The notes under the pieces were generated by a model that was not told where the DNA came from, did no database searches, and worked only from the letters and a program-made list of their open reading frames with translations. A stretch of DNA of 64,000 nt, taken from a virus. The translations under genes were made by a program, and so were the position numbers. The stretch lies in the IMG/VR virus record IMGVR_UViG_3300021400_000042. One strand, 5' to 3'. This document shows, piece after piece, positions 20,501 to 53,363 of this stretch (the stretch's first letter is position 1; each line of letters starts with the position of its first letter).

Positions 20501-23500
20501 CGACCGTATGCTTTTCAAGTCTGATGACTTTGACAGCATTTATACGGATCCGGAGACTCTGGAACAGTTCCCGGCATGGAAGAACGACTTTGAAGCACGT
20601 TTCCCGGAAGATACCTGGGAAGATATCGACAAACTGAAAGAGTGGATCAGCTGGGTAGTATCTACAGACCGCGATCAGGCTACAGGTGATGCTCTTGAAG
20701 CTCCTGTAACCTATGACGGAACTGAGTACACTGCCGATACTGCGGAATATCGTCTGGCGAAGTTCAAAGCAGAACTGGCGGATTATGCAGAGGTTGACAC
20801 TCTGATTTTCTACTATGTATGGACAGAATTCTTCCTGATGGTAGACTCCCGTGCAAAGAACCTGTTCATGGGCTTCCATGGCAGCCCGTGTGAGATCGAG
20901 GGTAGCGCGATTGATCGTAAGATCGTCGCAGAGCCTTACGATATGGATACCGGCCTGGGAACCAACAATGAAGGTACTCTGACATACACCTACAGTCTGG
21001 AAGATCTGGACACGATTGCCGGCGCGGATGTTTTCAACGGACAGCACTCTGTACTGTGGTGCAACCTGAGAGATACGCACAGAGCCGCAATCGTCAACAT
21101 GTATCAGACGCTCCGTTCCTCCGGCGGCCTTAACTACAAAGCAGTTGAGAAGCGCTATGAGGATGCACAGAATATCTGGCCGGAAGCAGTCTGGAATGAA
21201 GACGGAAGGATCAAATATACCGATCCTCTGACCAATCCGGAGACCGGTAAAGAACCGACGGCCTTCTATCTTCCCATGGCACAGGGATCAAAGGAGCAGC
21301 AGCGTAAATGGTGGCTGGGTAACCGTTTCGCGTACATGGACAGCAAATGGAATGCCGGTGATGCACTGGCACAGGTCATTCAGCTTCGTGGCTATGCAAA
21401 AGCGGATATCACGGTTACACCTTACATTGACCTGTATCCGACGGTCAAATATGGATCCTACCTGGTACAGCAGAGAGGTACGGCGGGGACACCTGCTACA
21501 CTGGCCTGCCCGATGGATTCTGTGAATGATACTGAGATCTATATTTACAGTGCGCCGCAGATTGCAAGCGTGGGCGATCTGTCCGGGCTGAAAGTCGGTG
21601 TCGCTGACTTCTCTCAGGCTACAAACATTCAGGAGGTCAAACTGGGTGATGCGGATCCGAGTTACGAAAACAACAACATGAAGCGTCTGAGCTTCGGCAG
21701 CAACGTTCTTCTGAAGAAGATCGATGTCCGGAACTGTGCGATGCTTGGAACCGACGAACAGAAGAGCGTGGACGTTTCCAACTGCGCTATTCTGGAAGAG
21801 GCTTACTTCGACGGCACAGCTATTCAGGGTCTTTCCCTTCCGAATGGCGGCGTGCTGAGAGTGCTGCACGTACCGGCTACAATGTCGAACCTGACGATCA
21901 GGAACCAGAAGAACCTTGCAGAGTTTGTTATCCCGTCCTACAGCAATATCTCGACGTTGTGGCTGGAAAACAACAGCGCCGTGATTGATACTCTGGATAT
22001 TGTGAAGAAGGTTCCGGCAAATGCCCGTATCCATCTGGTAGGGGTAGCGTGGGAAGCGGCTGACGCGGCAGAGATCAGAACCGTCCTGGATCTTCTTGAT
22101 ACAATGAGAGGTCTGGATGACTACGGCAACAACCAGGATCAGGCGTATGTTTCCGGATCCATCCACACAAGCAGCCTGACCGGTGCTGAAGTGGCGGAGT
22201 TTGAAGGCAGATACCCGTATCTGAAGATCCTTGCTGACCACACAACGTCTTACCGCACCTATGCGGATTATGACGGTACAGAGCTGAAGAAGGTTGCTTG
22301 CATCGACGGCGTACCGCAGGAGAGCGCACCGGCCAATCCGTCTAGGGCGCAGACAGCTCAGTACAGCTATTCCTTCGTGGGATGGTCTAAGAGCATGAAC
22401 GCTGAGACAGCGGACTCTGATGCACTGGATAACGTGATTGCTGACAGGACGATCTATGCGGCCTACAGCAAGACCGTGAGGGAATACACCGTAACATGGA
22501 AGAATGCGGATGGAACCACTCTCAGAACGGATACGCTGAAATATGGCGCAACACCGTCCTGGGGACAGGCTATGCCGACCAATTCCAGCGGCCAGACGGC
22601 ACAGGGATGGACACCGACGATCAGCACGGTCACCGGTAACGCAACCTATACCGCGTCCTACATTCCGGTATACAACGTATACTTCTACAACGGTACGACG
22701 CTGCTGAAGGAACAGCAGGTACAGCAGGGTGGAAATGCTACACCGCCGAGTGAAACACCTGTGAGCGCGGACGGTCCGGATTATGAATTCACCGGATGGC
22801 TGCCGGGGTACACGAACATTCAGGGTAACACTTCCTGCTATGCACAGTTCAAAGCTCCGAGTGCTGTGAAGGAAATCACGGATGACTGGGCAACCATTGT
22901 CTCAAAGATTGCGAACGGCACGGCAAATTACCAGGTAGGTAACTACAAGCCTCTGGACCTTGGTACAGAGGGCGTTGTCAATATGCAGATCGTTGGTAAG
23001 AATACCAGTCCTCTTGCATCCGGCAGCGGAACAGCTACTTATGACTGGCTGAGTATGGAACTGCTTGCAACTGACCATAGAATGAACCCGTCCAACAACA
23101 ATAACGCTGAAGGAACCGGGTCTATCGGTGGTTGGGAGAAGTGTGAAATGAGGAAGTACCTCAAAGAGACCATTAAGCCGCTCATACCTGAGACGGTTAG
23201 AAATGCAATCAAAGAGGTTACGAAGTATTCGCGTATCTTTGATACAAGCGGAACTGCAGTCAACGATGTGGCATCGACAGAAGATGTCTGGATCCCGTCC
23301 AAACGTGAAATGTTTGGTGCAATCAGTAATGCAGAGACGATGGGACCGATCTATGACGGAATCTTCACGGATAATGCAAGCCGTGTGAAGAAGAAAGTAG
23401 GCGCGTCCAGCGCCTCGTTCTGGTGGTGCCGGTCCGCTGGTACCAACCATGGCTTCAGTGGTGTGAACAGCAGCGGCGGCAATAGCTATAACGGCGCGAG

Positions 23501-23537
23501 CAACTCCTACCCGCTGGCCCTGGGCTTCTCAATTTAA
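17508..23537 (+). CDS. Giant modular tail fibre / receptor-binding protein (2009 aa), DGR target 1
   Basis: Contains a BppU_N-like N-terminus, a coiled coil, an LRR-like block (KLGDADPSYENNNMKRLSFGSNVLLKKIDVRNC...) and Listeria-Bacteroides-type repeats (YSFVGWS..., YEFTGWL...). The C-terminal domain ends in VR1. Confidence 0.85.
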   Translation: MIIHEFDLDMIPGGNVPSIRVNQYDEDFNLKINLFSRNGNFSVLSGTTALVRGTKPDGNAYSAEASVNGTVVTVTGNQQITAAAGRAIFEISLRRNGRELNTANFVIDIEQAAMDKDTVASTSVVRELVDIMDNSEEIINAGQQYENSQRAMEELTARSEAAAETATTMKTQTEEIATQTAEKWTEVSEQMDRKSAAIATLVSNADQVAAEASEKAGNALNEAAEVSNSLEDIQGKVTALELGQNNYVADGYVEDEEAVFVDKDGNEMFRITGIGGSGGGGGSSDQTVKSQVTMDNMTGWLSKTIAAGAECPVSFVWSSTMEGIPTGNGVVSVTVNNVVKATMDVAQGAVEIDLTPYMTASVNRVEVRVTDIEGQYKRINYSITIMQLSLSSTFDVATPYTGAIPFPYTPIGAVQKTVHFILDGTEIGTQQTSVTGRQMTYTIPAQAHGGHSIRVYFEAEINGETVRSNELYYEFTCLEAMSDEVIITSPYNQATQPQYTSIAIPFTVYDPVSPTAEVKIYANGELLSTQTVDRSEQSYTYRATEAGPLVIEIKSHETTKTFNIEITESDVHAEAETENLMLFLSSQGRSNNEENPWTWVSNVGENDVSAVLSGFNGASDGWQTDESGITCLRVTGGARVQIPYQIFAADARRTGLTFEIEYATRNVSDYNATILSCMNGGRGLEITPQRATLKSEQTELYMQYKEGEHIRVAYTIGKRSENRLVKSYIDGKIARVTQYPDDDDFAQVAPVGISIGSDNCTIDIYCIRVYTNDLTANQVMDNWIADTQDGSLMLERYARNQIFDAYGQVVPGQLPSNLPYMIIECEELPQYKGDKKTVNVSYTDPLYPSHSFTAEKVQANVQGTSSAPYAVKNLDLQFKGGFEMTTTGHSKLYRLRDDSMPTARFVLKADVASSESANNTQLVRLYNDLCPYKTPEMEEDERVRWGIDGIQIVMFWRDTVTGDLHFKGKYNFNFPKRFPEGYGYTEDQESWEWQNNTSDRMLFKSDDFDSIYTDPETLEQFPAWKNDFEARFPEDTWEDIDKLKEWISWVVSTDRDQATGDALEAPVTYDGTEYTADTAEYRLAKFKAELADYAEVDTLIFYYVWTEFFLMVDSRAKNLFMGFHGSPCEIEGSAIDRKIVAEPYDMDTGLGTNNEGTLTYTYSLEDLDTIAGADVFNGQHSVLWCNLRDTHRAAIVNMYQTLRSSGGLNYKAVEKRYEDAQNIWPEAVWNEDGRIKYTDPLTNPETGKEPTAFYLPMAQGSKEQQRKWWLGNRFAYMDSKWNAGDALAQVIQLRGYAKADITVTPYIDLYPTVKYGSYLVQQRGTAGTPATLACPMDSVNDTEIYIYSAPQIASVGDLSGLKVGVADFSQATNIQEVKLGDADPSYENNNMKRLSFGSNVLLKKIDVRNCAMLGTDEQKSVDVSNCAILEEAYFDGTAIQGLSLPNGGVLRVLHVPATMSNLTIRNQKNLAEFVIPSYSNISTLWLENNSAVIDTLDIVKKVPANARIHLVGVAWEAADAAEIRTVLDLLDTMRGLDDYGNNQDQAYVSGSIHTSSLTGAEVAEFEGRYPYLKILADHTTSYRTYADYDGTELKKVACIDGVPQESAPANPSRAQTAQYSYSFVGWSKSMNAETADSDALDNVIADRTIYAAYSKTVREYTVTWKNADGTTLRTDTLKYGATPSWGQAMPTNSSGQTAQGWTPTISTVTGNATYTASYIPVYNVYFYNGTTLLKEQQVQQGGNATPPSETPVSADGPDYEFTGWLPGYTNIQGNTSCYAQFKAPSAVKEITDDWATIVSKIANGTANYQVGNYKPLDLGTEGVVNMQIVGKNTSPLASGSGTATYDWLSMELLATDHRMNPSNNNNAEGTGSIGGWEKCEMRKYLKETIKPLIPETVRNAIKEVTKYSRIFDTSGTAVNDVASTEDVWIPSKREMFGAISNAETMGPIYDGIFTDNASRVKKKVGASSASFWWCRSAGTNHGFSGVNSSGGNSYNGASNSYPLALGFSI
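23404..23531 (+). repeat. DGR variable region VR1
   Basis: 128 nt, collinear with TR 24132-24259. Has 14 mismatches in the body, all at TR adenines in AAC/AAT codons. Confidence 0.95.
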
Positions 23538-23549
23538 GCCCGTATCCAT

Positions 23550-23576
23550 GATCTGGCCCGCTTGTCGGGCCAGATC
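23550..23576 (+). promoter_or_regulatory. GC hairpin downstream of VR1 (retrohoming-associated)
   Basis: GATCTGGCCCG-CTTGT-CGGGCCAGATC, an 11-bp stem, 18 nt after VR1. Confidence 0.7.
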
Positions 23577-23603
23577 CCCCGGCTTGCAAGGAACCCACCT
23601 TTT

Positions 23604-23630
23604 CCGCCGCGTAAGCGGCGGCGAATTTTT
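23604..23630 (+). terminator. Rho-independent terminator after the tail fibre gene
   Basis: CCGCCGC-GTAA-GCGGCGG followed by CGAATTTTT. Confidence 0.65.
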
Positions 23631-23645
23631 GGGGATTTTTTAGGG

Positions 23646-23674
23646 TAGACGAACGGCGTAAGCTGAAGTATAAT
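23646..23674 (+). promoter_or_regulatory. Candidate promoter of the avd-TR-RT unit
   Basis: TAGACG, 17 nt, TATAAT. Confidence 0.45.
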
Positions 23675-23699
23675 GACGTGCTGAAAGTAGGTGAAAGCA

Positions 23700-24104
23700 A
23701 TGTCGGTCATCCGTAGTAAACGCGCGGAGTCCGAAATGGAGTTTATCCATACTGCCCGACAGCTTCAGGTCTATACGATTCAGAAGTGTGTCGGATTTCC
23801 CAAACGGTACACATTTTACATCGCCCAACCGATTGCAAATGCAGCTACACGGGTGCATGAGCTGACGAAGATGGCGAATAGTGTCTATCCCACCAATTCC
23901 CATGAAGTCCAGCTTCGGCGGGACTATCTCCTCAGAGCAAATGCAGAATTGAACAGCCTTGTCTCACAGATCGAAGTCGCTCATGAGCTATTCGGTCTTG
24001 AACCCAATGTCATGAAATTCTGGATGGATCTGGTGGATAAGGAGATCCGTTTGGTAAAGGGAACTCTGAAAAAGGACAAAGAGCGTTACAAGAATATCAC
24101 ATAA
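23700..24104 (+). CDS. avd: DGR accessory variability determinant (Avd, four-helix bundle)
   Basis: About 134-aa basic helical protein between the target gene and TR. The ATG at 23700 has an AGGTG RBS. Same position as bAvd in BPP-1-type DGRs. Confidence 0.8.
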   Translation: MSVIRSKRAESEMEFIHTARQLQVYTIQKCVGFPKRYTFYIAQPIANAATRVHELTKMANSVYPTNSHEVQLRRDYLLRANAELNSLVSQIEVAHELFGLEPNVMKFWMDLVDKEIRLVKGTLKKDKERYKNIT

Positions 24105-24131
24105 GTTTATTTTGGGTTTTGTTCTAAACAT

Positions 24132-24259
24132 CGTCCAGCGCCTCGTTCTGGTGGTGCCGGTCCGCTAATAACAACAATAACTTCAATGGTGTGAACAGCA
24201 GCGGCAACAATAACAATAACAACGCGAACAACTCCTACCCGCTGGCCCTGGGATCCTCA
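24132..24259 (+). repeat. DGR template repeat (TR)
   Basis: Non-coding, with a run of AAC/AAT triplets. Matches VR1 over 128 nt and VR2 over 108 nt. The 3' end GGATCCTCA differs from both VRs (GGCTTCTCA), consistent with an IMH* versus IMH distinction. Confidence 0.95.
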
Positions 24260-24485
24260 TCTGTGAGACAAAGTAACCCATGAGGGCGAAATCAGTGCAA
24301 GAGGATGAGAAGGAGAATAGAACCCTCCATGCGGAAGCATGGTAAATAATGCCCTTGATAGGTCTGGGCGGACGCTGCTTGCATGGCGGTGCTTGATGGT
24401 GATGCACCGTTTCATGCCCACTGACCTTACGCGGCTATATGTAACCATCCGGCAGCCGTACAGGGGCAATTTTAAAAAAGGACTG

Positions 24486-25640
24486 ATGACAATGACCAGT
24501 GAAGAACGTCGGGAGGGACGGTATCAGAGAAGGATTGCAAAGCGCATGGCGAAGAGAAATCAGAGCCGTGCTTTTTGTGATGACTTCAACACCGTATTCT
24601 CTTATGAAAATCTTTACCGGTCATATAAGAAATGCCGCAGGAATGTGGCGTGGAAAGCATCCGTCCAGAAATACATCACGCAAGCGCCTTTGATGGTCAA
24701 TCAGACATACGAAAAGCTGCAGGCGGGGAAATTCAAGTCCAGCGGCTTTTATGAGTTTGATATCAATGAGCGTGGGAAGATCCGGCATATTAAGTCGGTG
24801 ACTATAACAGAAAGAGTGGTACAGCGCTGTCTGTGCGATAATGCGCTTGTACCCATGCTGAGTCCTACTTTCATCTATGATAATGGTGCTTCACTGGAAA
24901 ACCGTGGATATCATTTCTCCATACGGCGGATGGTGAGACACCTGCAGGAGCATTACCGGAAACATGGTACAGAAGGTTATGTCCTGCTTTTTGATTTTTC
25001 CAAATTCTTTGATAATGTCTCTCATGAACTGTGCAAGCAAATCATGAGAGAACAGTTCACCGATGAAAGGGTCATAGGTATCACAGATCATTTCATTGAC
25101 ATGTTCGGTGATGTCGGCCTGGGACTTGGAAGTCAGATCAGTCAGACATTCGCTCTGGCCTCTGCAAATCGTCTCGATCATTATGTGAAAGAGGTACTGC
25201 GGATCAGAGGCTATGGACGGTATATGGATGACGGGTATCTGATTCACGAGAGTAAGGAATACCTGCAGCACTGCCTGACGGAAATCCGGCGGGTATGTAG
25301 GGAACTTGGGATCACGATCAATGAGAAGAAAACGCAGATTGTGAAGATATCCCATGGTTTTACCTTCCTGAAAGCTCGTTTTTACCTCACTGAAACCGGA
25401 AAAGTTGTCCGGAAAATATATAAAAAGTCCATCGTCCGGGAGCGGCGCAAGCTGAAAAAGTTTGTGCCTCTTCTGGAAAACGGGGTCATGAGCTACACGG
25501 ACGTTGCGACGGCCTTTCAGTCGTGGTGTGCGTATGCAAAGAACTTCAGCGCATGGCATACGATACAGAATATGTGTCGATTGTATAATCAACTATTCAT
25601 TTATCCCTGGATAATACAGGGAGGGACACAAGGTTGCTGA
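24486..25640 (+). CDS. DGR reverse transcriptase
   Basis: Contains RYMDDGYL (YMDD box) and LGLGSQISQ (the DGR-type [LIV]GxxxSQ motif). The start is set at ATG 24486 or 24492. The longer ORF from 24339 would cover the TR-RT spacer. Confidence 0.9.
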   Translation: MTMTSEERREGRYQRRIAKRMAKRNQSRAFCDDFNTVFSYENLYRSYKKCRRNVAWKASVQKYITQAPLMVNQTYEKLQAGKFKSSGFYEFDINERGKIRHIKSVTITERVVQRCLCDNALVPMLSPTFIYDNGASLENRGYHFSIRRMVRHLQEHYRKHGTEGYVLLFDFSKFFDNVSHELCKQIMREQFTDERVIGITDHFIDMFGDVGLGLGSQISQTFALASANRLDHYVKEVLRIRGYGRYMDDGYLIHESKEYLQHCLTEIRRVCRELGITINEKKTQIVKISHGFTFLKARFYLTETGKVVRKIYKKSIVRERRKLKKFVPLLENGVMSYTDVATAFQSWCAYAKNFSAWHTIQNMCRLYNQLFIYPWIIQGGTQGC

Positions 25641-26677: not shown

Positions 26678-26799
26678 GACACGCGCTCATTATCGGAGCC
26701 GTCCTGCTATGCGGGGCGGCTCTTACTTTTGGCGGCATGGTAATACATGAACTTGGACGATTTATCAACGATGTAAGGGGAGATAACGAATATGAATAA
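26674..26799 (+). CDS. Possible small membrane peptide (41 aa, GTG start)
   Basis: Bridges the holin stop and the endolysin start. One TM segment ([21 protein letters not shown]). Below the ORF-track cutoff. Confidence 0.3.
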
Positions 26800-28588
26800 A
26801 GAAAATATGGCCGTCCTGACAAATGTTATCGGCGCGGTAGAGTCTGGCGGTCAGATCTACGGGAAGCGCGACTATTCCGCGTATGCGGCCCCGTACACGA
26901 ACAGCAATGTGGAGCATACAATCACCCTGGGATGGGCGCAGAACTACGGATCTGAAGCCCACAAGCTGATTCAGATGATTTATGATGCGGATCCGGCAGC
27001 CTTCAAAAAGATTGATGGGAACGGCAGCATAAAGAAAGCGTTGGCGAAGGACTGGGTAGCTACACGGTGGAATCCGAGTGCTGCACAGAAGAAGACACTG
27101 ATTGCCCTGATTTCTTCCGACGCAGGAAAGAAGTGCCAGGACGAACTGTTTGCACAGCTTATGGATACCTTCATCGCGGAGTGCGAGAAGAAATATACCA
27201 AAGATATCAAGGCGGTCATGATGTATTGTCAGATCCGGCATCTGGGTGGCGGTGGTCCTGTAAAGAGGATCTTTGACCGGTTGGGAGGAGACTACAGCCT
27301 GGACGCGATCATGGCATCTCTGAAGAAGGATCAGAACGATACATCCAATGATAATCAGGTCGGGGACGCGAAGTTCTGGACCAGACATCAGAAGTGTAAG
27401 CAGTTCATTGAGAAGTATGCGGTAGTGGATAAAGTGGATAAAGTAGATGAAAGTGAGGATAAGACAATGGGAGTAACAGCTGAACAGGTCATTGCGGTAT
27501 ATAGGAGCTGGATCGGGCTGTCCCGTGCGGCCGGCACACACTCTGTTATCCTGGACACATATAACAAGTACATTCGGAACCATCCGGGAGCAGGCCGTAA
27601 CTATCAGGTTCAGAGAAGTGACGCATACTGCGATACTACGTTCTCTGCAGCATTCGTGAAGCTGAATGCGGTTGACCTGATCGGTGGCGTGGAATGCGGT
27701 GTGGAAGAACATGTGAAGATCTTCAAGGCTGCCGGTATCTGGGAAGAGGACGGCAGTATTACGCCTAAACCCGGTTACGGCATCATCTATAACTGGGATG
27801 ATGCGACGCAGCCGAATGACGGCTACAGTGACCATATCGGCATCGTAGAGAAGGTTTCCGGCGGGTACATTACCTGCATTGAAGGAAACATGAACGGCGG
27901 TGTTGTCGGCCGCAGGACAATTCCGGTTGGCTGGGGGTATATCCGCGGTTTCGCAAAACCGAAATATGCGACATCCTCCGGTAAGACCGAAGAGAAGCAG
28001 GAGCAGACTGCTACACAGCAGCAGGCGGGTGGCGGAACGACACTCAGCAAAGCAAAGAAGTGGAACGGCATTGTCGTGGATAAGACCGGCGCAAATGTAC
28101 GGACCTGGCCGGGAACGGAGAACCATCAGGTTTCCTTCAGTCCTCTGAAATACGGAACCGTGGTAGATGTCTGCGATACCATCAAAGCGGCGGATCAGAC
28201 AGACTGGTATTACATCCGGTATAATGGTCGGTATGGTTTTGTCAGTGCTGCCCTCATCCAGCGGAAGGAAACGGCGGCAGCAGCCCCGTTCACACCGAAG
28301 GAACAGGCCACAAAAAAGACGGCCACCTATGGCGCGTCTATCGGTCCTGACAAGTCTGTGGCCGGAACCTATAAGGTCACAGCTGACAGCCTGAATATCC
28401 GGAACCGTGCCGGTGTGGACACGGCTAAAGGGTGTACGATCCTGGGAGCAATTCCGGAGGGGACCAAAGTCCAGAACTACGGTTTCTATTCCATGGTCGG
28501 CGGTGTGAAGTGGCTTTACATTCAGGTCACCTATGACGGTGTGACCTATACCGGTCATTGTTCCGGCGAATATCTGAAGAAGGTTTGA
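26792..28588 (+). CDS. Endolysin (CHAP/NlpC-P60-like amidase plus two SH3b domains)
   Basis: Cys in SDAYCDTTFSAAF and His in YSDHIGIVEKV. Two C-terminal SH3-like repeats (NVRTWPG...WYYIRYNGRYGFV and LNIRNRAG...WLYIQVTYDG). Confidence 0.8.
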   Translation: MNKENMAVLTNVIGAVESGGQIYGKRDYSAYAAPYTNSNVEHTITLGWAQNYGSEAHKLIQMIYDADPAAFKKIDGNGSIKKALAKDWVATRWNPSAAQKKTLIALISSDAGKKCQDELFAQLMDTFIAECEKKYTKDIKAVMMYCQIRHLGGGGPVKRIFDRLGGDYSLDAIMASLKKDQNDTSNDNQVGDAKFWTRHQKCKQFIEKYAVVDKVDKVDESEDKTMGVTAEQVIAVYRSWIGLSRAAGTHSVILDTYNKYIRNHPGAGRNYQVQRSDAYCDTTFSAAFVKLNAVDLIGGVECGVEEHVKIFKAAGIWEEDGSITPKPGYGIIYNWDDATQPNDGYSDHIGIVEKVSGGYITCIEGNMNGGVVGRRTIPVGWGYIRGFAKPKYATSSGKTEEKQEQTATQQQAGGGTTLSKAKKWNGIVVDKTGANVRTWPGTENHQVSFSPLKYGTVVDVCDTIKAADQTDWYYIRYNGRYGFVSAALIQRKETAAAAPFTPKEQATKKTATYGASIGPDKSVAGTYKVTADSLNIRNRAGVDTAKGCTILGAIPEGTKVQNYGFYSMVGGVKWLYIQVTYDGVTYTGHCSGEYLKKV

Positions 28589-28594
28589 TCGGGT

Positions 28595-28634
28595 TGCCCT
28601 GGTGAGGATTGAGGTCCTTGCCGGGGCATTTTTT
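28595..28634 (+). terminator. Terminator after the lysis genes
   Basis: TGCCCTGG...CCGGGGCA stem followed by TTTTTT. Confidence 0.55.
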
Positions 28635-28636
28635 AT

Positions 28637-28892
28637 ATTACAAACGCCTGTAATATTCTGTAATATTGCGTAATTTTGTAATTTGGAATTCGGGAATCTC
28701 ATTACAAAATTACGGAGTATTACAAAATCTGTAATCCGTGAAAGCCGCATAGAATAAGGCTTTATCTGCATTTATTACAATATTACAAACATTTCTAATA
28801 GACCTATTGAAATAGAGAAAATAGAGAGTACATGTCCCGCCTGTCCCGCCTAATGCGAACACGTCTATACGCGCGTGCGAGAAACGTAATTA
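28637..28892 (+). repeat. Iteron-rich element, copy A (homologous to 53121-53363)
   Basis: Shares GTAATATTGCGTAATTTTGTAAT, TTACAAAATTAC, CTGTCCCGCCTAAT and AACACGTCTATA with copy B. GTAAT occurs at 28650, 28660, 28670 and 28678. Confidence 0.85.
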
Positions 28893-28910
28893 ACTCCCCT
28901 GATAAACGAC

Positions 28911-28987
28911 AGTCGAAAATGTTCAACTTTAGCATTGACAAGTCGAAATAAGTTTGCTATAGTGTACTCAGTAAAACAAATTCAACT
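28911..28987 (+). promoter_or_regulatory. Early promoter with operators
   Basis: TTGACA (28935), 17 nt, TATAGT (28958). Operator AGTCGA-N6-TCAACT at 28911-28928 and a half-matching site at 28970-28987. Confidence 0.65.
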
Positions 28988-29005
28988 GAACGGAGGAACG
29001 CAAAA

Positions 29006-29269
29006 ATGATGAAAGCAAAGGCGCTCAACCTTAAAAACATGAAAGAGACACTGGTGAACTACAGCGGCGATCAGAAAGAACTTGAAAAAATTTGGGACGG
29101 ATTACATCAAATGGCGTGCCTGGGATTTATCACACAGGATACATGGAGAAAATTCTATGAGGAGTGCAAAGGCTGGTTCGTAACGACGGACGGGGCGGAA
29201 GTCAGAGACAGCGAACAGGGCGATGCAGTTATCTGGACATACACGGGGGAGGCACAGTACAAAGCATGA
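29006..29269 (+). CDS. Hypothetical protein (87 aa)
   Basis: First gene after the promoter, with a GGAGGA RBS. Confidence 0.5.
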   Translation: MMKAKALNLKNMKETLVNYSGDQKELEKIWDGLHQMACLGFITQDTWRKFYEECKGWFVTTDGAEVRDSEQGDAVIWTYTGEAQYKA

Positions 29270-29472
29270 AAGCGATCATCAAGTATTACGATCAGTGGGG
29301 CGGTAAAAGGCAGGCCACGGTAGAGATTGAAACGAATGAGCCGAACAGCATTCTTGTCAAGGCCATGAAAACGAAGAAAATCAGTCCGTGGGATGTGGTC
29401 AGAACGATCCGGTGCGGTCAGAGAGAATACCAGTGGATGGGCAGAGCTAAAGAGGCTATGAAGGAGGCTTAA
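29266..29472 (+). CDS. Hypothetical protein (68 aa)
   Basis: ATGA overlap with the upstream gene. Confidence 0.5.
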   Translation: MKAIIKYYDQWGGKRQATVEIETNEPNSILVKAMKTKKISPWDVVRTIRCGQREYQWMGRAKEAMKEA

Positions 29473-29474
29473 TC

Positions 29475-29690
29475 ATGAAGAAGGGTGATACCTACCAGAA
29501 TTTCGGATGCACCTGGGTAGTAGATGACGTTTACGAGGTTCCGGACTCAGCATTGATGAGTCCGGAAAACCCCTTCGGGCTGTGGCACAAAAAGCGCTTT
29601 AAAGCGCATGTGATAAAGGCTCCGGAAGGATATGAGGGGGTCAGAGAGATGGACGCGGCATTGACCGGTTTTATGGCAGAGGAGGAATGA
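29475..29690 (+). CDS. Hypothetical protein (71 aa)
   Basis: Starts 2 nt after the upstream stop, with a GGAGG RBS. Confidence 0.5.
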   Translation: MKKGDTYQNFGCTWVVDDVYEVPDSALMSPENPFGLWHKKRFKAHVIKAPEGYEGVREMDAALTGFMAEEE

Positions 29691-29954
29691 GTGATGAAAA
29701 GGACAATCAGTGCAAAGCGTGTTTTAGATGAGCTGGCAGAGGCTTATAACGATCACACTATTGCCTATGGCTATGCAATGGCAACCGGTGACAATAAGAC
29801 GGCAAATGAGCTTCAAATAGCTATCAATGTTATCAGCAAACTGGTAAGGGATCTTGGCTTCACGTCCGGTGTGGACTATACAACGGAACGTGTCCATGAG
29901 GAAATGGCCAATGTATCGTTCATGTACTGGAAGATGGAAAAGTGCGGAGGTTGA
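29691..29954 (+). CDS. Hypothetical protein (87 aa)
   Basis: GTG/ATG start abutting the upstream stop. Confidence 0.5.
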   Translation: MMKRTISAKRVLDELAEAYNDHTIAYGYAMATGDNKTANELQIAINVISKLVRDLGFTSGVDYTTERVHEEMANVSFMYWKMEKCGG

Positions 29955-29956
29955 AA

Positions 29957-30199
29957 ATGATTGAAATCGTAAGCAGCAGGAATGCATTGTCAGCGGAGGA
30001 CCTACGGGTCCTCTGCATTCGGGAAAACTGGTTCACCAATGGGGATAATTCACAGTATGAGAAACTGTTTGACTTGAACCGGGAAGGCGCTTCCCTGGAC
30101 GATCTGGCCTTGGTGATCTGGCTGTGCAGTTCGGATGTGGAACGCGAGGAAGTGCTACACAAGCTGAATGAAAGATGCAGGAGGGTAAACTATGGTTGA
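29957..30199 (+). CDS. Hypothetical protein (80 aa)
   Basis: ATG at 29957 after a GGAGG RBS. Confidence 0.5.
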   Translation: MIEIVSSRNALSAEDLRVLCIRENWFTNGDNSQYEKLFDLNREGASLDDLALVIWLCSSDVEREEVLHKLNERCRRVNYG

Positions 30200-30344
30200 C
30201 TATGAAGCTCTGATTTTGGAGCGGCAGGAGAATATCGAGATCTGGGAAGATGAACCGGACAGTCCGTATCTTCAGCAGCCCTTTGACAGCGGTAACTGGT
30301 GGGACGATATCCCGGATGAAGAATTTGAGGAGGTAAGACGATGA
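30192..30344 (+). CDS. Hypothetical acidic peptide (50 aa)
   Basis: Fills a gap in the ORF track. Overlaps both neighbouring genes. Confidence 0.4.
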   Translation: MVDYEALILERQENIEIWEDEPDSPYLQQPFDSGNWWDDIPDEEFEEVRR

Positions 30345-30502
30345 CTGTAGAACAGAGGTATCAGGCAGCTATCAGGGAGATCGGAGGAGCCGCAGGGCTT
30401 CTCAGTCTTCCGGAAGAGGTAAAGGATATTCTGAAAGAGACTATGGACCTGGAAACAAAAACAGTGCTGTTGGAAGCAATCGCAGAGAAGAAAGAGAGGT
30501 AA
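30341..30502 (+). CDS. Hypothetical peptide (53 aa)
   Basis: ATGA overlap with the upstream gene. Ends 4 nt before the next ATG. Confidence 0.4.
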   Translation: MTVEQRYQAAIREIGGAAGLLSLPEEVKDILKETMDLETKTVLLEAIAEKKER

Positions 30503-30506
30503 GGGC

Positions 30507-30692
30507 ATGAAGGTTATTTTTACGATGGAGAAGGCAACAAAGAACACGATCCGGTTCACGGAGAAACTGGAAAACGAACTGGATGCACCGAAGATCGGAA
30601 CGATTTATGTTCCAAAAGCCACCCTGGGCGCTATCGGCTGGAAGGAAGGCCGCGTGTTGACGGTAGATCTGGGAGCGGAGGAACCAGCATGA
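30507..30692 (+). CDS. Hypothetical protein (61 aa)
   Basis: GAGAGG RBS. Overlaps the next gene. Confidence 0.5.
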   Translation: MKVIFTMEKATKNTIRFTEKLENELDAPKIGTIYVPKATLGAIGWKEGRVLTVDLGAEEPA

Positions 30693-31078
30693 GGCAGATG
30701 AGGCGGAGAGTCAGATACAGTGTGAACATTCACGGGGAGCGCGTTGAGCGTACTCCCCGTGAGTACCCTTACAGCTATGATCCGTTTCAGGTCTTCAAGG
30801 ATCCTGCCTGGGCAGATACGGACGCGGTTGTTTACTCTGACCGGATGCTTCAGTGGGATCGGGACAAATACGATCAAAGCTGTGAGAAGATCTGGAATAA
30901 TCACGGTCAGTCCTTCAGCGGGAGAGAACCGGCAGAGATTGAGAAGTTTCTGCAGCTGTATTTTGAGGATCCTACATTGGTGCTGACCGGCATTGAAGCG
31001 GGATGTAATTATTCAAACGGATATCCGTTCTGGGTGTTCTACATGAGAGGTGAGAAGGTGTGTACAAATACTATTTGA
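30689..31078 (+). CDS. Hypothetical protein (129 aa)
   Basis: ATGA overlap with the upstream gene. Confidence 0.5.
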   Translation: MRQMRRRVRYSVNIHGERVERTPREYPYSYDPFQVFKDPAWADTDAVVYSDRMLQWDRDKYDQSCEKIWNNHGQSFSGREPAEIEKFLQLYFEDPTLVLTGIEAGCNYSNGYPFWVFYMRGEKVCTNTI

Positions 31079-31641
31079 CAGAGCGGCCGCGTTCAATCGC
31101 TACACAGCCGGACGGATACAAGGACTGGATCGATTACGATGAGCGGACGTATATTAGCGAGATCGGGCGGTCCGTCTGGGGAGTGCTGTACTATGATCGG
31201 CAGCTCACGCCGGAAGAGATTGAACGGTTTGAACTGTATGACGCATCTCTGATCCTGGCAAATGTCCTGAGAGGGCCGACAGGAGATAACGAGAAGGATC
31301 TGAAGCAGGAGCTTTATGGCGTGAGATGGGCGTATCAGTTTCTCTCTAACGGAACGTGGGGATGCGTTGATCTTCAGAGTACGGATAAGACAGACAAAGG
31401 TGAGTCCTGGGCTATGGGGGCATACGGGAACATGAAGATCTTTATCATGAGCGGGATTGCAGAGGAAATATACCTGCTGCGGGATGTTGACCGGCAGGAA
31501 GCGGTCAGGGCAGCAAATCAGAAAGTGCGAGAAACCGGCTGCAAGGATATGTCCATCCTGAAAGAAGAGGTTGCAAAGAGAGCGCTGACAATCATAGATC
31601 GGGAGTACGTGGAAGCACAGCGGGAAGCAAGGTGGAAATGA
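31060..31641 (+). CDS. Hypothetical protein (193 aa)
   Basis: GTG start. The N-terminus MYKYYLTERPRSIATQPDGY recalls domains seen in conjugative-element polyvalent proteins, but no assignment is made. Confidence 0.5.
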   Translation: MYKYYLTERPRSIATQPDGYKDWIDYDERTYISEIGRSVWGVLYYDRQLTPEEIERFELYDASLILANVLRGPTGDNEKDLKQELYGVRWAYQFLSNGTWGCVDLQSTDKTDKGESWAMGAYGNMKIFIMSGIAEEIYLLRDVDRQEAVRAANQKVRETGCKDMSILKEEVAKRALTIIDREYVEAQREARWK

Positions 31642-31642
31642 G

Positions 31643-31777
31643 ATGACGATTTCAAAAGGGAACCGGTATGCGGTTGATAATGGTTTTGGTTACGACCTGT
31701 ATGAGCGGGATCGGTATGTTTGCAGTGTGGCTACACTGTCAGAGGCAGAGTATTTTGTGGACGGAGGGGACGAATGA
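31643..31777 (+). CDS. Hypothetical peptide (44 aa)
   Basis: Starts 2 nt after the upstream stop. ATGA overlap with the downstream gene. Confidence 0.4.
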   Translation: MTISKGNRYAVDNGFGYDLYERDRYVCSVATLSEAEYFVDGGDE

Positions 31778-32112
31778 AAAAGCGGCCTGAGATCGGTACG
31801 GTGCTGTGGTCTGTACATGAGCATCTGTATTATATTCCGGGCAGAGCAGGACCGGTGATGGAGTATTGTGTCTGCGACGCTGCAGTAACAGGATATTACG
31901 AGGGCGGATTTGTGGAGATTTGTGTTACGGGCAAGAGTCCGGACGGATACCGCACACCGTACCGTTACAAGTTGGCTGATCTGGGGAAGAGTATATTCTT
32001 CACTCCAAGGGAAGCGGCAGAACTGGCACAGAGGGAAACAGAACGATATGAGCGGACATGGAGTCGGATGGGATACCCGCCTATGCGCCGGACATGGGAG
32101 GTGTATTTATGA
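31774..32112 (+). CDS. Hypothetical protein (112 aa)
   Basis: ATG at 31774 is preferred over the 31720 start because of the translational coupling. Confidence 0.5.
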   Translation: MKKRPEIGTVLWSVHEHLYYIPGRAGPVMEYCVCDAAVTGYYEGGFVEICVTGKSPDGYRTPYRYKLADLGKSIFFTPREAAELAQRETERYERTWSRMGYPPMRRTWEVYL

Positions 32113-32336
32113 GCATAAGAGTAGGCGGCCCCATGACGGGCGTTACCGGAATAAAGGAATGTGATACATGCAGGTGGGCCGATATTTACGAAGGGCCGCG
32201 CACGATCAGGAAAGGAAGCATGACTTTGATCCAGAACGGAAAGCATAACATTGACTGCACTCATACCGGCGATAAAACCATAAACTTTGATGACAAAGGG
32301 ATGAAGTGCAGCGGATGGGAGCCGCGCGAGGAGTAA
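32109..32336 (+). CDS. Hypothetical Cys-containing protein (75 aa)
   Basis: ATGA overlap with the upstream gene. Last gene of the operon. Confidence 0.5.
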   Translation: MSIRVGGPMTGVTGIKECDTCRWADIYEGPRTIRKGSMTLIQNGKHNIDCTHTGDKTINFDDKGMKCSGWEPREE

Positions 32337-35045: not shown

Positions 35046-35212
35046 AGTCGAAAGAATTCTATTTTTCCTCTTGACAAGTTGAATTTGTTTTGCTACACTC
35101 GCTATAGACAGTTGAACGAGGTAGACCAAAACAAAAAGCAAAGAGTTCCGGTCATAGAGGATAGTTAAAAGTGGTGTTCTAATTATACTCTATTAGTTGA
35201 AATCTTTCAACT
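35046..35212. promoter_or_regulatory. Lysis-lysogeny switch region
   Basis: Rightward promoter TTGACA (35071), 17 nt, TACACT (35094). Perfect palindrome AGTTGA-AATCTT-TCAACT at 35195-35212 overlaps the -35 of a leftward TTGAAA-17-TATAAT promoter. Half-sites at 35046, 35077 and 35110. Confidence 0.65.
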
Positions 35213-38823: not shown

Positions 38824-38965
38824 CGGAGCATAGCTCAATGGTAGAGCGGCGTGTATTCAGTAGCGATGGCGTGTCACATTGACGATACGTTGCTGCGGAG
38901 GGATCCGGACCAGTCACCCGGTTTTCAATTCAGTGACGGTGCAGGTTCAAGTCCTGCTGCTCCGC
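38824..38965 (+). ncRNA. tRNA-like element 1 (expanded anticodon region)
   Basis: Acceptor CGGAGCA/TGCTCCG, TA, D-arm GCTC-AATGGTA-GAGC, T-arm GCAGG-TTCAAGT-CCTGC. About 93 nt lie between the D- and T-arms instead of about 23. Confidence 0.6.
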
Positions 38966-39280
38966 TTATAGAAAACAGGGAGGGGGTGAACAGCTTTTAT
39001 GAATTCGGTGACTATCTTCCGTTTCGGATCTTTCGGATATGTGTCAACAGGAAAAGTATTACTGAGACTATGGCTTTTCGTTGGCATGATATCGCCGGAG
39101 ACAGTGAAAAGCTGGCATCCTATTTAGATTAAGCCCATGTAATGAAGAGCTTCTCGTTTAATAACCCAAAGATCCGAACGATGGTGAGTATTACATGGGC
39201 GCATAAAGCTCAACATGTGAATCGATAGTGCGTGTCTCCTGGCAGTGGAAATACAGGAATCACGACACGCACTCTTTTAT

Positions 39281-39376
39281 CGGAACGTGGACAAGAGGTC
39301 AAAGTCGCAGAGCTGAAAGAGAGATTGATCTGACAAAGGAAGCTCAGAGACGCAGGTTCAAATCCTGCCGTTCCGA
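39281..39376 (+). ncRNA. tRNA-like element 2
   Basis: Acceptor CGGAACG/CGTTCCG, D-arm GAC-AAGAGGTCAAA-GTC, T-arm GCAGG-TTCAAAT-CCTGC. About 45 nt in the anticodon-arm region, with no 7-nt anticodon loop. Confidence 0.55.
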
Positions 39377-39534
39377 AGCGGGGTGGAGAACAAATTATCC
39401 GCGCACCCAGTGACAAGTAGCGATAACACTTGTGAAGTAGGGGGACTAAAGTACACGGCCTCTTGAAAAACAGGTGGCGAAAACGTCAGGCCAACCTTGC
39501 GGGATGAGTGGTTTCGGTTACCTGAACCGACCAT

Positions 39535-39613
39535 CGGAACGTAGCTCAAAGGTAGAGCAGGGAATATGGCGGCCGAGGAAGCCCCGATGCAGGTTCAAGT
39601 CCTGTCGTTCTGA
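39535..39613 (+). ncRNA. tRNA-like element 3
   Basis: Acceptor CGGAACG/CGTTCTG, D-arm GCTC-AAAGGTA-GAGC, T-arm GCAGG-TTCAAGT-CCTGT. The 30-nt middle part does not fold into a canonical anticodon arm. Confidence 0.55.
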
Positions 39614-40095: not shown

Positions 40096-40406
40096 TTGCC
40101 CGTCCGGTCATGTTTGAACCGGAAATTGAAACCGATTGCACTTTGGCAGCACGTCAGCCGGTCGAAGAGCGGCAGCAGTCAGGAGCGGCTATACGGCCTG
40201 CGTTTCGCTGTGAACGAAATCACAGAGCGCGAGGTTATGTTCGGTTTGTAGCGCGTAAAGGGTCCTGAAGACCGGACGATATACGGGGAAACCATATACA
40301 GCGACCGGAGCAGGTGAGAACCGACGATCTGGGGTTGTTAAACGGTGCATCGGTATGGGAGTACCCGTTTTTCTCTGAGATTTACAAGTGATGAAGGAGG
40401 CAACCT

Positions 40407-45319: not shown

Positions 45320-45925
45320 ATGAAAATCGGAAGAGAGATCAAAGAGACCTGGGCAGAAATCGAAGAGCTTCAGAAGAATGGCGCATTGCTGAATCGGTGC
45401 GTTCCCGGGGATTACAAGCTCGTAGATTTTGGAGAGGATGGCGTTATCAGAATGCGCTTTGCCGGATTACATAAGGACGTAAGGGAATATGGAGAACCGG
45501 CTTATGCAACATGGGTTGCAGGAGATCTGACTGCAAAGAGACACCAGATGCACAATGACTGGTTTGGTGAGTACAGCAAATCGGATCTTAGAAAATGGCT
45601 GAACGATGAACTGTATAACCGGCTGCCGGATGACCTGAAGAGAATCATCGTTCCTGTGCTGAAACGGCAGGTGGCGTATGACGCGGACTGGAATTGCTAC
45701 ACAGATGAAGTGGTGGATAAAATCTGGATCCCGTCGTTTGCGGAGCTATTTGAGGGCGGATATCCTGATCTGTTTACAGACGATGAGAGCCGCGCTATGG
45801 GTGCGTTTTATTGGTGCCGGTCCGCTTATAACGGCAATTACTTCAGTGGTGTGGACAGCAGCGGCAACAATAGCCATGACATCGCGGACTACTCCTACCC
45901 GCTGGCCCTGGGCTTCTCAACCTGA
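45320..45925 (+). CDS. DGR target 2: stand-alone paralogue of the fibre C-terminal (DUF6273/CLec-like) domain, 201 aa
   Basis: Aligns by eye with the last ~240 aa of the 2009-aa fibre (IKETWAEI.. vs ITDDWATI..; RKWLN.. vs RKYLK..; IWIPS..E.F). Ends in VR2. Confidence 0.85.
   Translation: MKIGREIKETWAEIEELQKNGALLNRCVPGDYKLVDFGEDGVIRMRFAGLHKDVREYGEPAYATWVAGDLTAKRHQMHNDWFGEYSKSDLRKWLNDELYNRLPDDLKRIIVPVLKRQVAYDADWNCYTDEVVDKIWIPSFAELFEGGYPDLFTDDESRAMGAFYWCRSAYNGNYFSGVDSSGNNSHDIADYSYPLALGFST
45812..45919 (+). repeat. DGR variable region VR2
   Basis: 108 nt, collinear with TR 24152-24259. Has 12 mismatches in the body, all at TR adenines. Same GGCTTCTCA 3' end as VR1. Confidence 0.95.
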
Positions 45926-53147: not shown

Positions 53148-53363
53148 TATTGCGTAATTTTGTAATGCGGTTGTCTTACAAAATTACAGGATATTACAAA
53201 CGTTGTAATCTCGGAAAGCCTTATTTTATCAGGGTTTCAAGAGAATATTACAAAATTACAATTATTTCTATAGAGGTATAGAAATAGAGAGAACAGGGGG
53301 TATATGTACTCCCTGTCCCGCCTAATCGCAACACGTCTATAACGCGCGCGCGAAAGTGTAATT
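53121..53363 (+). repeat. Iteron-rich element, copy B (starts inside the primase 3' end)
   Basis: Homologous to 28637-28892. GTAAT occurs at 53134, 53144, 53154 and 53162. Confidence 0.85.

Follow-up and report, generated by a model that had tools for sequence, protein, structure and literature searches.

A putative SaPI-type replication origin present as two iteron-rich copies in a temperate tailed phage genome

The alpha primase-helicase of satellite phage P4 carries a C-terminal DNA-binding domain, and one short iteron is recognised by this protein at two separated sites, ori and crr. The second of these, crr, bears iterons and is required in cis but does not duplicate the origin.

In the SaPI islands, the initiator-helicase Rep, a member of SF3, is encoded immediately upstream of 6 to 12 iterons, and the C-terminal domain of Rep1 holds a winged helix that reads iterons of 5-6 nt (PMC9371898). 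The origin has an AT-rich region near its centre and oppositely oriented iterons, at least two on each side; one origin per island has been described (PMC9371898). Origins of the SaPI type are further characterised by specific binding of the cognate Rep, which is independent of ATP, by melting and by Rep-dependent replication. Phage SPP1 offers a different layout, in which the second origin, oriR, occupies a segment that also contains moron genes and is flanked by transcription signals (PMC6316719); in a proposed model, gp38 bound to oriR forms a roadblock, and this triggers the theta-to-sigma switch (PMC6316719, PMC3485210). Our literature search on VapE-associated phage origins yielded nothing usable.

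We were interested in an iteron-rich element that occurs twice, 24.5 kb apart, in the window, that is, the whole 64,000-nt stretch of viral DNA analysed (IMG/VR record IMGVR_UViG_3300021400_000042), which represents a temperate tailed phage of ~64 kb. A first-pass annotation had likened the pair to ori and crr of P4. Here, we present comparisons from which we judge, with a probability of about 0.75, that both repeats are copies of an iteron-type replication origin whose initiator is the fused primase-helicase encoded by the phage itself. The element is of a known kind, the SaPI-type origin; less usual is that some relatives keep a complete second copy at a distance from the gene. The SaPI origin, for its anatomy, and SPP1 oriL/oriR, for the two-copy layout, are closer analogues than the P4 pair.

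Anatomy and surroundings of the two copies

Copy A (28637-28892) and copy B (53121-53363), both on the plus strand, are direct repeats that are ~77-81% identical. All sequence observations of the first pass were confirmed. The copies align over their full length: the mean column identity is 81% in an alignment of 28600-28920 with 53084-53400, a repeat search returned three collinear blocks with start-to-start offsets of 24472-24484 nt, and a single nhmmer profile detects copy A at E=1e-49 and copy B at E=3e-47. The same profile found no third copy elsewhere in the 64-kb window.

The pentamer ATTAC/GTAAT occurs 12 times in copy A and 11 times in copy B, which also contains one TTACA variant, with shared order, orientation and spacing. 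Successive distances are 13, 10, 10, 8, 23, 8, 10, 12, 43, 8 and 104 in copy A and nearly the same in copy B (13, 10, 10, 8, 21, 10, 12, 42, 8 and 103). Outside the copies the pentamer occurs at 1.78 per kb, a background that the copies exceed ~25-fold, and all six instances of GTAAT-N5-GTAAT in the window fall within them (shuffle expectation 0.05). We recovered the four GTAAT units in 10-10-8 phasing reported at first pass, at 28650, 28660, 28670 and 28678 in copy A and at 53134, 53144, 53154 and 53162 in copy B; the suggestion that such phased short repeats are sites for a DNA-binding protein stands, and they are best read as iterons.

The left iteron array of copy A (28637-28735) comprises nine of the units, including those in the previously noticed imperfect inverted repeat, which has 28-nt arms (28655-28682 and 28701-28728) that are 89% complementary; the left array of copy B spans 53121-53209. 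Next in copy A is a short hairpin-like block, GAAAGCC...GGCTTT (28740-28763), and most lineages contain a similar AAACCC..GGGTTT block. A direct doublet of iterons on the plus strand, ATTACAATATTAC with 8-nt spacing in copy A (28774-28786) and ATTACAAAATTAC in copy B (53247-53259), lies just left of the AT-rich block, a position that in each lineage is taken by a doublet of that lineage's iteron. In copy A the AT-rich block (28792-28829) is 63-77% A+T, contains TAGAGA repeats, is conserved across lineages and is a candidate DNA-unwinding element; its counterpart in copy B occupies 53265-53300. Within this block is a small AT-rich palindrome, TTTCTAATAGACCTATTGAAA in copy A and TTTCTATAGAGGTATAGAAA in copy B.

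Beyond the AT-rich block is a GC-rich core, composed of two GTCCCGCC units, CCGCCTAAT and GTCTATACGCGCGTGCG in copy A (28834-28879) and of GTCCCGCCTAAT and GTCTATAACGCGCGCGCG in copy B (53315-53352). The GC-rich box described earlier is indeed kept in both copies (CTGTCCCGCCTAAT ... GTCTATA(A)CGCGCG). On the right-hand side of its AT-rich/GC core, the window phage has only one iteron, a GTAAT on the minus strand (28886-28890 in copy A, inverted relative to the direct doublet on the left; 53358-53362 in copy B), and some relatives have two or three (L009, L078, L146). The core was also considered as a sigma70 promoter and rejected: a promoter scan placed no promoter inside copy A or B, and inspection by eye of the TATA(T/C)AC box found no hexamer with A2 and T6 on either strand.

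The two copies differ in their surroundings. Copy B, the gene-adjacent one, starts 27 nt ahead of the stop codon of the primase-helicase gene, so that, as had been noted, it overlaps the last 27 nt of the ORF (50679-53147), and it continues directly after this gene within the replication operon, with no terminator ahead of it. Copy A, the orphan, is located 21.8 kb upstream of the gene start, between an endolysin terminator and a promoter. An intrinsic-terminator-like hairpin with a T run (28595-28628, plus strand) closes the late/lysis operon just before it, and a sigma70-like promoter, TTGACA-17-TATAGT (28935-28963, plus strand), follows it and would drive the small ORFs at 29006-32336. Integrase, cI-like repressor and replication genes are enclosed by the two copies, in agreement with the earlier description. 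GC skew carries no origin signal and tracks the direction of transcription, being positive throughout except at 32-36 kb, around the minus-strand integrase and repressor genes.

A fused primase-helicase and the repeat it may read

The proposed initiator is a primase-helicase of the Pri-Rep type with a VapE-like SF3 domain (822 aa; 50679-53147, plus strand). It matches Pfam VapE-like_dom (1.1e-77), its N-terminal part matches the PHROG family DNA primase/helicase, and residues 373-728 match SaPI1 Rep1 (PDB 7PDS) with E=2e-74 in a phmmer search of PDB. A profile built from 15 lineages for the final ~130 aa matches Rep1 in its C-terminal domain, at residues 336-375 and 406-466 (E=2.5e-12), and 7PDS is the only credible PDB match for both the whole protein and this profile. 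We propose, from this homology, that the C-terminal domain (approximately residues 729-822; 52863-53147, plus strand) is a winged helix that would read the iterons. The neighbouring genes of the replication module encode a DUF2800 nuclease, an Enc34-type SSB, a family-A polymerase, a VRR-NUC-like endonuclease and an SNF2 helicase. Pfam searches of the module ORFs found no DnaB-type helicase or loader, the helicases present being the VapE-like and SNF2 proteins.

Relatives retrieved through the primase-helicase protein (80 viral loci) have the same architecture 3' of the gene in every lineage inspected. The AT-rich block, the CCGCCTAAT repeats and the TATACGCGCGCGCG box are kept across lineages, whereas the short repeat differs: it is GTAAT, GTGAT, TGTAACATT, CTGACAC, CTAACA, CTTACA, GGTTGCCGA, TGATGCAACA or one of several others. 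Between lineages, the primase-helicase varies most in its C-terminal domain, and among 74 distinct loci the top 6-mer is shared wherever the C-terminal sequence is shared and differs where the C-termini differ. The comparison of relatives proposed at first pass shows the repeat unit changing together with the C-terminal domain. The best candidate for the binder of the ATTAC arrays, and most likely their binder, is the phage's own primase-helicase, since this protein is a homologue of SaPI Rep that includes the iteron-reading C-terminal domain. The GC-rich core is kept in lineages with other iterons and also occurs in origins adjoining other primase-helicase families.

The likeness to SaPI origins extends beyond the initiator. 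Primase and helicase are fused in the window protein, as in PriRep5; copy B, but not copy A, is positioned immediately 3' of the gene; each copy contains 11-12 pentanucleotide iterons, within the range of six to twelve; an AT-rich block lies between oppositely oriented iterons; and iteron specificity varies among relatives. Unlike a SaPI, the window is a tailed phage and not a satellite island, has a single inverted iteron right of the AT-rich block, beyond the GC box, has extra conserved CCGCCTAAT repeats and the TATACGCGCGCGCG box, and contains a second full copy 24.5 kb away. Neither the GC box nor the CCGCCTAAT repeats belong to the SaPI origin that PMC9371898 describes.

SPP1 resembles the window in layout, not in ancestry. 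Each genome has two similarly organised origins with repeats and an AT-rich unwinding element, one at the initiator gene and a second that is intergenic, between transcription signals and beside small accessory genes. However, SPP1 employs gp38 with a separate loader and a DnaB-type helicase, whereas the candidate in the window is a self-loading SF3 primase-helicase. The position relative to the gene also differs: oriL is inside gene 38, while copy B follows its gene and shares no more than the final 27 nt with it.

With P4 the window shares a multifunctional primase-helicase and one short iteron at two separated genome sites. Nevertheless, the ori/crr picture of the first-pass annotation is not supported: copy A is a complete origin copy with an AT-rich block and a GC box, not an iteron-only site, and one-copy relatives exist. 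Moreover, the P4 alpha chain was not matched in PDB searches with the whole protein (E<=0.01) or the C-terminal profile (E<=10), so that the window protein shows no sequence match to the P4 origin-binding domain.

Staphylococcus phage 3A and phages related to it have the same gene order (exonuclease, SSB, PolA, ..., VirE helicase, gap, endonuclease, SNF2 helicase). In the gap (40183-40524), six TGATGCAACA iterons surround an AT-rich stretch; in contrast to the window, there is one copy and no alternating-CG box. The phage 3A record annotates no origin, and the gap is a predicted relative of the element.

If the main reading is correct, the winged-helix C-terminal domain would bind the 11-12 ATTAC pentamers of each copy, some of which, at 10-10-8 bp, would be presented on approximately one helix face, in inverted groups on either side of the AT-rich block. 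Hexamers would then assemble and the AT-rich block would melt; the helicase would load itself, its own primase domain would prime, and the phage family-A DNA polymerase would extend. Copy B would be the canonical origin, as we infer from its position. Copy A is most likely a complete second site of Rep assembly and a second origin, which would sit, like SPP1 oriR, in a transcriptionally quiet gap reaching from the late-operon terminator to the promoter of the small accessory genes.

Occurrence, conservation and alternative roles of the second copy

Orphan copies occur in at least five other lineages, with the strand and iteron of the gene-adjacent copy. Both copies were seen in five two-copy lineages: the window; L114/L157, a single contig of 58.8 kb whose orphan is 25.3 kb upstream of its gene-adjacent partner, which resembles the window except that another ORF precedes the orphan; L116/L039 and L106/L048, with orphans 7.6 and 9.7 kb downstream, respectively; and L112. 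Four more orphans (L126, L130, L143, L003) were found on shorter contigs. In the window, L003 and L126 the orphan follows a homologous endolysin, and in L130 an endolysin-like ORF, as judged from the sequence of that ORF only. A terminator-like hairpin with a T run precedes the orphan in the window, L003, L114, L126, L130 and L143, and a promoter-like sequence follows it in the window, L003, L116, L106, L126 and L130. Retrieval through the endolysin gave 11 loci, which are no measure of how often the orphan follows lysis genes, and the element was present only in L314 (equivalent to L003), near-identical. A blastn search of GenBank phages with copy A gave no match, and a scan of genome contigs for the phased GTAAT pattern gave 25 loci, none of which fits the element profile, and found no host.

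Other relatives carry a single copy. This is the case for phage 3A and for the CTGACAC lineage, in 46 contigs, as determined with an exact 18-nt doublet, which was used in place of a loose pattern (CTGACACNNCTGACAC) whose listed matches were mostly noise. The first-pass annotation had set both one-copy relatives and a recent local duplication against its proposal. The former exist and are viable, which makes the pair accessory; the latter does not apply, given that several diverged lineages also have orphans whose iterons match. Copy A is accessory to the replication module and, because one-copy relatives exist, is not needed for the module to work.

The divergence between copies A and B is unevenly distributed. 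Identity is 59/60 in ATTAC columns and 130/196 (66%) in other columns (Fisher p=2.5e-8), and 76/82 in columns conserved across lineages compared with 106/146 in variable ones (p=2.4e-4). We propose that copy A is probably kept under selection. However, identity between copies from the same genome is 67-86%, higher than that with same-position copies of other lineages, so that gene conversion from copy B could preserve copy A without selection on copy A itself.

The most serious alternative, possible although clearly less probable than a second origin, is that copy A binds the initiator without firing. The complex at copy A might stall forks from copy B and trigger a switch from theta replication to concatemers, as gp38 would at oriR; copy A might loop to the origin and stimulate it, like crr; or it might limit initiation through handcuffing or titration. 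The SPP1 model (PMC6316719, PMC3485210) is a precedent for such a site, and the phage encodes a recombination toolkit consisting of the PD-(D/E)XK nuclease (DUF2800), an annealing-type SSB, the VRR-NUC-like endonuclease and the SNF2 helicase. The two copies are on the same strand in 5/5 two-copy lineages, which suits a polar barrier, and the viability of one-copy relatives points to an accessory or modulatory role. Yet a pure binding site needs only iterons, and copy A has kept the AT-rich block and the GC box as well, at the positions that lineages share. Furthermore, there are no clusters of ATTAC/GTAAT iterons alone in the window, nor iteron-only clusters within +/-10 kb in 103 loci; beyond that range such partner sites would have escaped notice, as the probes for orphans (HMM or GC-box pattern) include the core. 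As the intact core is explicable by gene conversion, these observations only weaken the non-firing interpretation.

Quite unlikely, in our estimate, is that copy A is a neutral duplicate of the origin, which only gene conversion keeps like copy B or which recombination at module junctions has produced repeatedly. The greater likeness of same-genome copies would fit such a history, as would the variable location of the orphan, which either follows the lysis genes or is found 7.6-9.9 kb downstream of the gene for the primase, and its absence from many relatives. Neutrality is hard to reconcile with the near-complete retention of iteron positions despite 19-23% divergence between A and B, with the sparing of cross-lineage conserved columns, or with the recurrence of the site after the lysis genes (window, L003 and L126, and L130 by ORF sequence) and of the upstream distance in L114, albeit after another ORF. 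All copies are, in addition, direct repeats, which bear a deletion cost, so a useless copy should be lost.

Regulation of transcription, the first-pass alternative of arrays bound by a regulator, taken here as operators for the repressor or a late activator with the GC-rich core as a promoter for the genes downstream, appears very improbable. Co-oriented genes do lie downstream of both copies, the core is conserved and a strong promoter follows copy A. Even so, no sigma70-like promoter was found within either copy or anywhere in 52800-53800, the intergenic region between the repressor and the early genes (~35.0-35.25 kb) contains no ATTAC cluster, and copy B lies inside an operon without a preceding terminator. 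The repeat, moreover, covaries with the C-terminal domain of the primase-helicase, the one protein to which this comparison extended.

Least credible of the four is the other early suggestion, a structured cis RNA such as a nut/put-like antiterminator or another riboregulator: large hairpins are predicted (z=-5.5 for the plus strand of copy B), but folding of the minus strand is no weaker (z=-4.1 and -7.6 compared with -1.9 and -5.5 for plus), as expected from inverted binding sites at the DNA level, and Rfam gave no match at gathering score in the whole window and only chance microRNA-like matches at E<=10 in 28500-29100. The units outside the large stem (the doublet and the right-hand unit) change by lineage exactly like the stem units, and the terminator-like hairpins before and/or promoter-like sequences after orphans, lineage by lineage, put them outside the flanking transcripts.

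Two further candidates were rejected, namely, a MITE-like mobile element (there are at most two copies per genome, always on the same strand, with iterons as the only terminal repeats) and a packaging site (terS/terL are at 61375-63145, 8 kb from copy B).

Implications for phages with a VirE/VapE module

A more elaborate reading, which we regard as speculative and unlikely, together with the two possibilities that follow, would make the orphan a programmed, orientation-dependent, Rep-bound converter from theta replication to the recombination-driven synthesis of concatemers. The 24.5-kb segment between the direct repeats, which contains the lysogeny and replication genes, may be able to recombine out as a self-replicating circle. 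The TATACGCGCGCGCG box, common to origins with unrelated iterons and to at least two other primase-helicase lineages (L146, L129), may for this reason be a shared, so far undescribed loading or priming signal for SF3 primase-helicases. The conservation of the alternating-CG box beside very different iteron sets makes it worth testing.

The duplicated iteron origin proposed here would place a replication origin in uncultured temperate phages of the gut, a large group, and by extension in phages of Staphylococcus, Enterococcus, Clostridium and Listeria that have a VirE/VapE module and no annotated origin. The lineages would provide a natural table of paired C-terminal domains and iterons, a possible resource for work on DNA reading by SF3 initiators. 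Close relatives that differ in having one copy or two would form a clean comparative system for the role of the second copy, as a second start site or as a fork barrier that triggers the transition from theta to sigma replication, as proposed for SPP1.

Genome setting of the two repeats

The window represents a temperate phage genome of 64 kb or more in circularly permuted form, beginning within an SPP1-type portal gene and ending past terS/terL. Structural genes and a tail-fibre gene targeted by a diversity-generating retroelement (DGR) come first on the plus strand, followed by a plus-strand CHAP and SH3 endolysin gene (26792-28588), a terminator-like hairpin (28595-28628), and the first of two iteron-rich repeats, copy A (28637-28892). 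Past copy A lie a promoter, TTGACA-17-TATAGT (28935-28963), and small ORFs without family matches except for one with a DarA_C domain, and then, on the minus strand, genes for a serine integrase, an ImmA-like peptidase and a cI-like repressor. The early genes encode a DUF2800 nuclease, an Enc34-type SSB, a family-A polymerase, ThyX, a C5-methyltransferase, NrdD/NrdG and MazG. The gene for an 822-aa VapE-like primase-helicase (50679-53147) is followed by copy B (53121-53363), with a VRR-NUC-like endonuclease and a SNF2 helicase encoded beyond it.

Several other features of this genome were recorded. The DGR (23404-25640 and 45792-45919) has two targets and comprises a template repeat (24132-24259), an RT-2 RNA (24259-24488; Rfam, 146 bits), and a putative reverse-transcriptase ORF (24339-25640) and small accessory ORF (23691-24104), both assigned by position only. 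VR1 (23404-23531) lies at the 3' end of a 2009-aa tail ORF, with 15 of 16 mismatches at template adenines; VR2 (45792-45919) lies within a DUF6273 ORF of the replication module, with 13 of 26 mismatches at template adenines and the others mostly in the first ~20 nt, apparently beyond the variable region. Tandem 153-nt repeats (11573-12129, 76-80% identical) occur within a 1626-aa ORF (8435-13315) that probably encodes the tape-measure protein, and a GP20-a RNA motif (3221-3319; Rfam RF02991, 57.9 bits) directly precedes ORF 3324-3995 in the head-gene region. Of four tRNA-like regions detected by Rfam, three fall in the replication module (38824-39613); ARAGORN confirms only tRNA-Leu(aag) (39280-39377) and tRNA-Tyr(gta) (63236-63319), the other two being unusually long or atypical. 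Flanked by the replication module and the terminase genes, an ORF at 59620-60300 contains a papain-fold glutamine deamidase toxin domain (Pfam Gln_amidase, 3e-14). The promoter and leader past copy A (28935-28987; TTGACA-17-TATAGT, then CTATAGTGTACTCAGTAAAACAAATTCAACT) recur inverted at 35077-35107 (31 nt, 77% complementary), adjoining the cI-like repressor gene. On this account the small-ORF operon (29006-32336, including the DarA_C-domain ORF) may share the regulation of the repressor and be active in the lysogen. A TACGCGCGGGAGAAnTTTTTGAnGGGAGG stretch at 53420-53450, just upstream of the VRR-NUC-like gene (53385-53771), is conserved at the same relative place in the related loci L005, L006 and L007 and absent past copy A; it may act as a signal for translation or transcription.

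The first-pass annotation described two alignable repeats, and this description holds. Regions 28600-28920 and 53084-53400 are direct repeats with 81% mean column identity, a repeat search yields three collinear blocks with starts 24472-24484 nt apart, and a profile of the element matches only copies A and B in the 64-kb window (E=1e-49 and 3e-47). Both the 28-nt inverted arms and the GC-rich box are likewise present, as is the small AT-rich palindrome with its paired differences, and copy B overlaps the primase-helicase ORF by 27 nt. Copy A contains 12 ATTAC/GTAAT units and copy B 11, where the rest of the window averages 1.78 per kb; the two sets are alike in order, orientation and spacing. 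All six GTAAT-N5-GTAAT occurrences fall within the two copies, with 0.05 expected from shuffles.

A proposed SaPI Rep-like initiator and its candidate iterons

Residues 373-728 of the primase-helicase match cryo-EM chain 7PDS (E=2e-74), which is SaPI1 Rep1 bound to DNA (PMC9371898), and a C-terminal profile, built from the last ~130 residues in 15 lineages, aligns with Rep1 residues 336-375 and 406-466 (overall E=2.5e-12). The Reps of SaPIs load themselves, serve both as SF3 helicases and as initiators, and use a winged helix in their C-terminal domain to recognize penta- or hexanucleotide iterons; 6-12 of these lie directly downstream of rep, pointing in opposite directions on each side of a near-central AT-rich region, and in SaPI5 Rep is fused to a primase (PMC9371898). 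As judged from its sequence, copy B closely matches most of this description, with a single iteron to the right of its AT-rich block. The SaPI origin as described (PMC9371898) is without a counterpart of the window's CCGCCTAAT repeats and TATACGCGCGCGCG box.

A search with the primase-helicase protein provided 80 viral loci (42-88% identity). In every lineage inspected, the 300-400 nt past the primase gene share a layout that opens with an array of inverted groups of short repeats, continues with a short hairpin of the AAACCC..GGGTTT type, a doublet of the lineage's repeat in direct orientation, an AT-rich block containing TAGAG repeats, CCGCCTAAT-like repeats and a (G)T(C/A)TATACGCGCGCGCG box, and closes with at least one inverted repeat. 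The repeat unit is GTAAT in the window, L005 and L006, GTGAT in L007, and TGTAACATT, CTGACAC, CTAACA, CTTACA, GTAAAC, GGTTGCCGA, TGATGCAACA, CGTCCC and more in other lineages.

We compared this iteron variation with the C-terminus of the primase-helicase, whose last ~100 residues are its most divergent part (16-30% identity, compared with 75-100% in the ATPase core). Across 74 distinct loci, identical C-terminal sequences go with the same top 6-mer and different C-termini with different 6-mers. Three C-terminal variants likewise correspond to three different iterons in three subgroups of isolate-genome loci (43% identity; the group includes Staphylococcus phage 2638A). The most telling pair is L007, whose protein is 85% identical overall to that of the window, with substitutions in the C-terminal helix and hairpin among its changes, and whose iteron is one base apart (ATTAC to ATCAC).

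The pattern GTMTATACGCGCGYGCG retrieved 92 viral stretches, and in some of these, beyond the clade of the window, this box occurs beside quite different iteron arrays, as in L111, L103, L154, L171 and the L097 group. In L146 (3400-3800) it accompanies GCTCCA iterons past an 800-aa ORF resembling, by sequence, a different primase-helicase, and in the high-GC L129 (~1860-1910) it lies directly past a distant VapE-like ORF. The box may be a shared origin core, and could mark the limit of unwinding, signal priming or loading, or play a structural part through its alternating CG; a sigma70 promoter is not a credible reading.

A maintained, accessory second copy

Copies A and B are identical at 59 of 60 ATTAC columns and at 130 of the remaining 196 (p=2.5e-8); they agree at 76 of the 82 columns conserved in 16 other lineages, compared with 106 of 146 variable ones (p=2.4e-4). 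Comparable orphan copies, away from the primase gene, recur in other lineages, bearing the lineage's own iteron on the same strand as the gene-adjacent copy. L114 and L157 belong to a single 58.8-kb contig, with the orphan 25.3 kb upstream of the gene-adjacent copy, like the window; it lies 7.6 kb downstream in L116/L039 and 9.7 kb downstream in L106/L048. L112 has two copies 9.9 kb apart, L126 has an orphan with GTAAT iterons past a homologous endolysin gene and terminator, and L130, L143 and L003 also carry orphans. These are located at gene ends, mostly past a terminator-like hairpin, and in the window, L003, L116, L106, L126 and L130 just ahead of a promoter-like sequence and small accessory ORFs. 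Within a genome, the copies (67-86% identical) resemble one another more than they do the same-position copies of other lineages, so their evolution is concerted, whether by shared specificity, by gene conversion or by the two together. The spared ATTAC and conserved columns and the recurring orphans exclude chance or recent duplication; by these sequence comparisons, copy A is no accident but a second copy that has been maintained.

The second copy is accessory. Staphylococcus phage 3A (L325, NC_007053) has the module order of the window, and an unannotated gap past its VirE helicase gene (40183-40524), a predicted origin of this cultured phage, contains six TGATGCAACA iterons around an AT-rich stretch and no alternating-CG box; there is no second iteron cluster in its 43 kb. 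In the abundant CTGACAC lineage, 46 contigs (several of 50-68 kb) each contain a single exact match to the doublet. Among 103 loci scored for iteron clusters within +/-10 kb, only the window had a convincing second one; the scan missed the L039 and L048 pairs, whose iterons fell below its thresholds. The first-pass annotation, which likened the pair to P4 ori/crr, named relatives with a single copy and no replication defect as telling against its reading. Phage 3A and the 46 CTGACAC contigs supply part of that evidence, arguing against an obligatory crr-like partner.

Possible functions of the pair

The element appears to be of a known kind, an iteron origin at which a SaPI-Rep-like SF3 primase-helicase would act. 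Most likely, extrapolating from the SaPI work, the C-terminal domain would bind the ATTAC units, hexamers would form on the inverted iteron groups, the AT-rich block would melt and the helicase self-load, and the primase domain would prime for extension by the phage polymerase. We favor copy A as a second complete Rep-assembly site, probably capable of firing, because it retains the AT-rich block and the GC box.

The strongest competing reading is that copy A is bound yet does not fire, as in the model proposed for SPP1 oriR, in which bound gp38 halts the fork and sets off the theta-to-sigma switch, helped by an SSB, a nuclease, a resolvase and an annealing protein (PMC6316719; PMC3485210). 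The window phage encodes an analogous toolkit, and copy A, like oriR, lies with small accessory (moron) genes in a segment bracketed by transcription signals; as the initiator families differ, the likeness is one of layout only. The first-pass alternatives fare worse. A cis-acting RNA element is contradicted by a minus strand whose folding equals or surpasses that of the plus strand, by units outside the large inverted-repeat stem that vary by lineage like stem units, and by orphan copies outside the flanking transcripts, and the element has no Rfam match; regulator operators or a promoter fail with no promoter-like site inside copy A or B and no ATTAC cluster at the repressor and early-gene region. 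A packaging site is rejected, the terminase genes being 8 kb off.

The element occurs here in an uncultured temperate phage, together with an accessory second full copy that recalls SPP1 oriL/oriR in its layout. A widespread phage replication module gains a predicted origin annotation, together with a natural table of C-terminal-domain/iteron pairs and a comparative system of one-copy and two-copy lineages.
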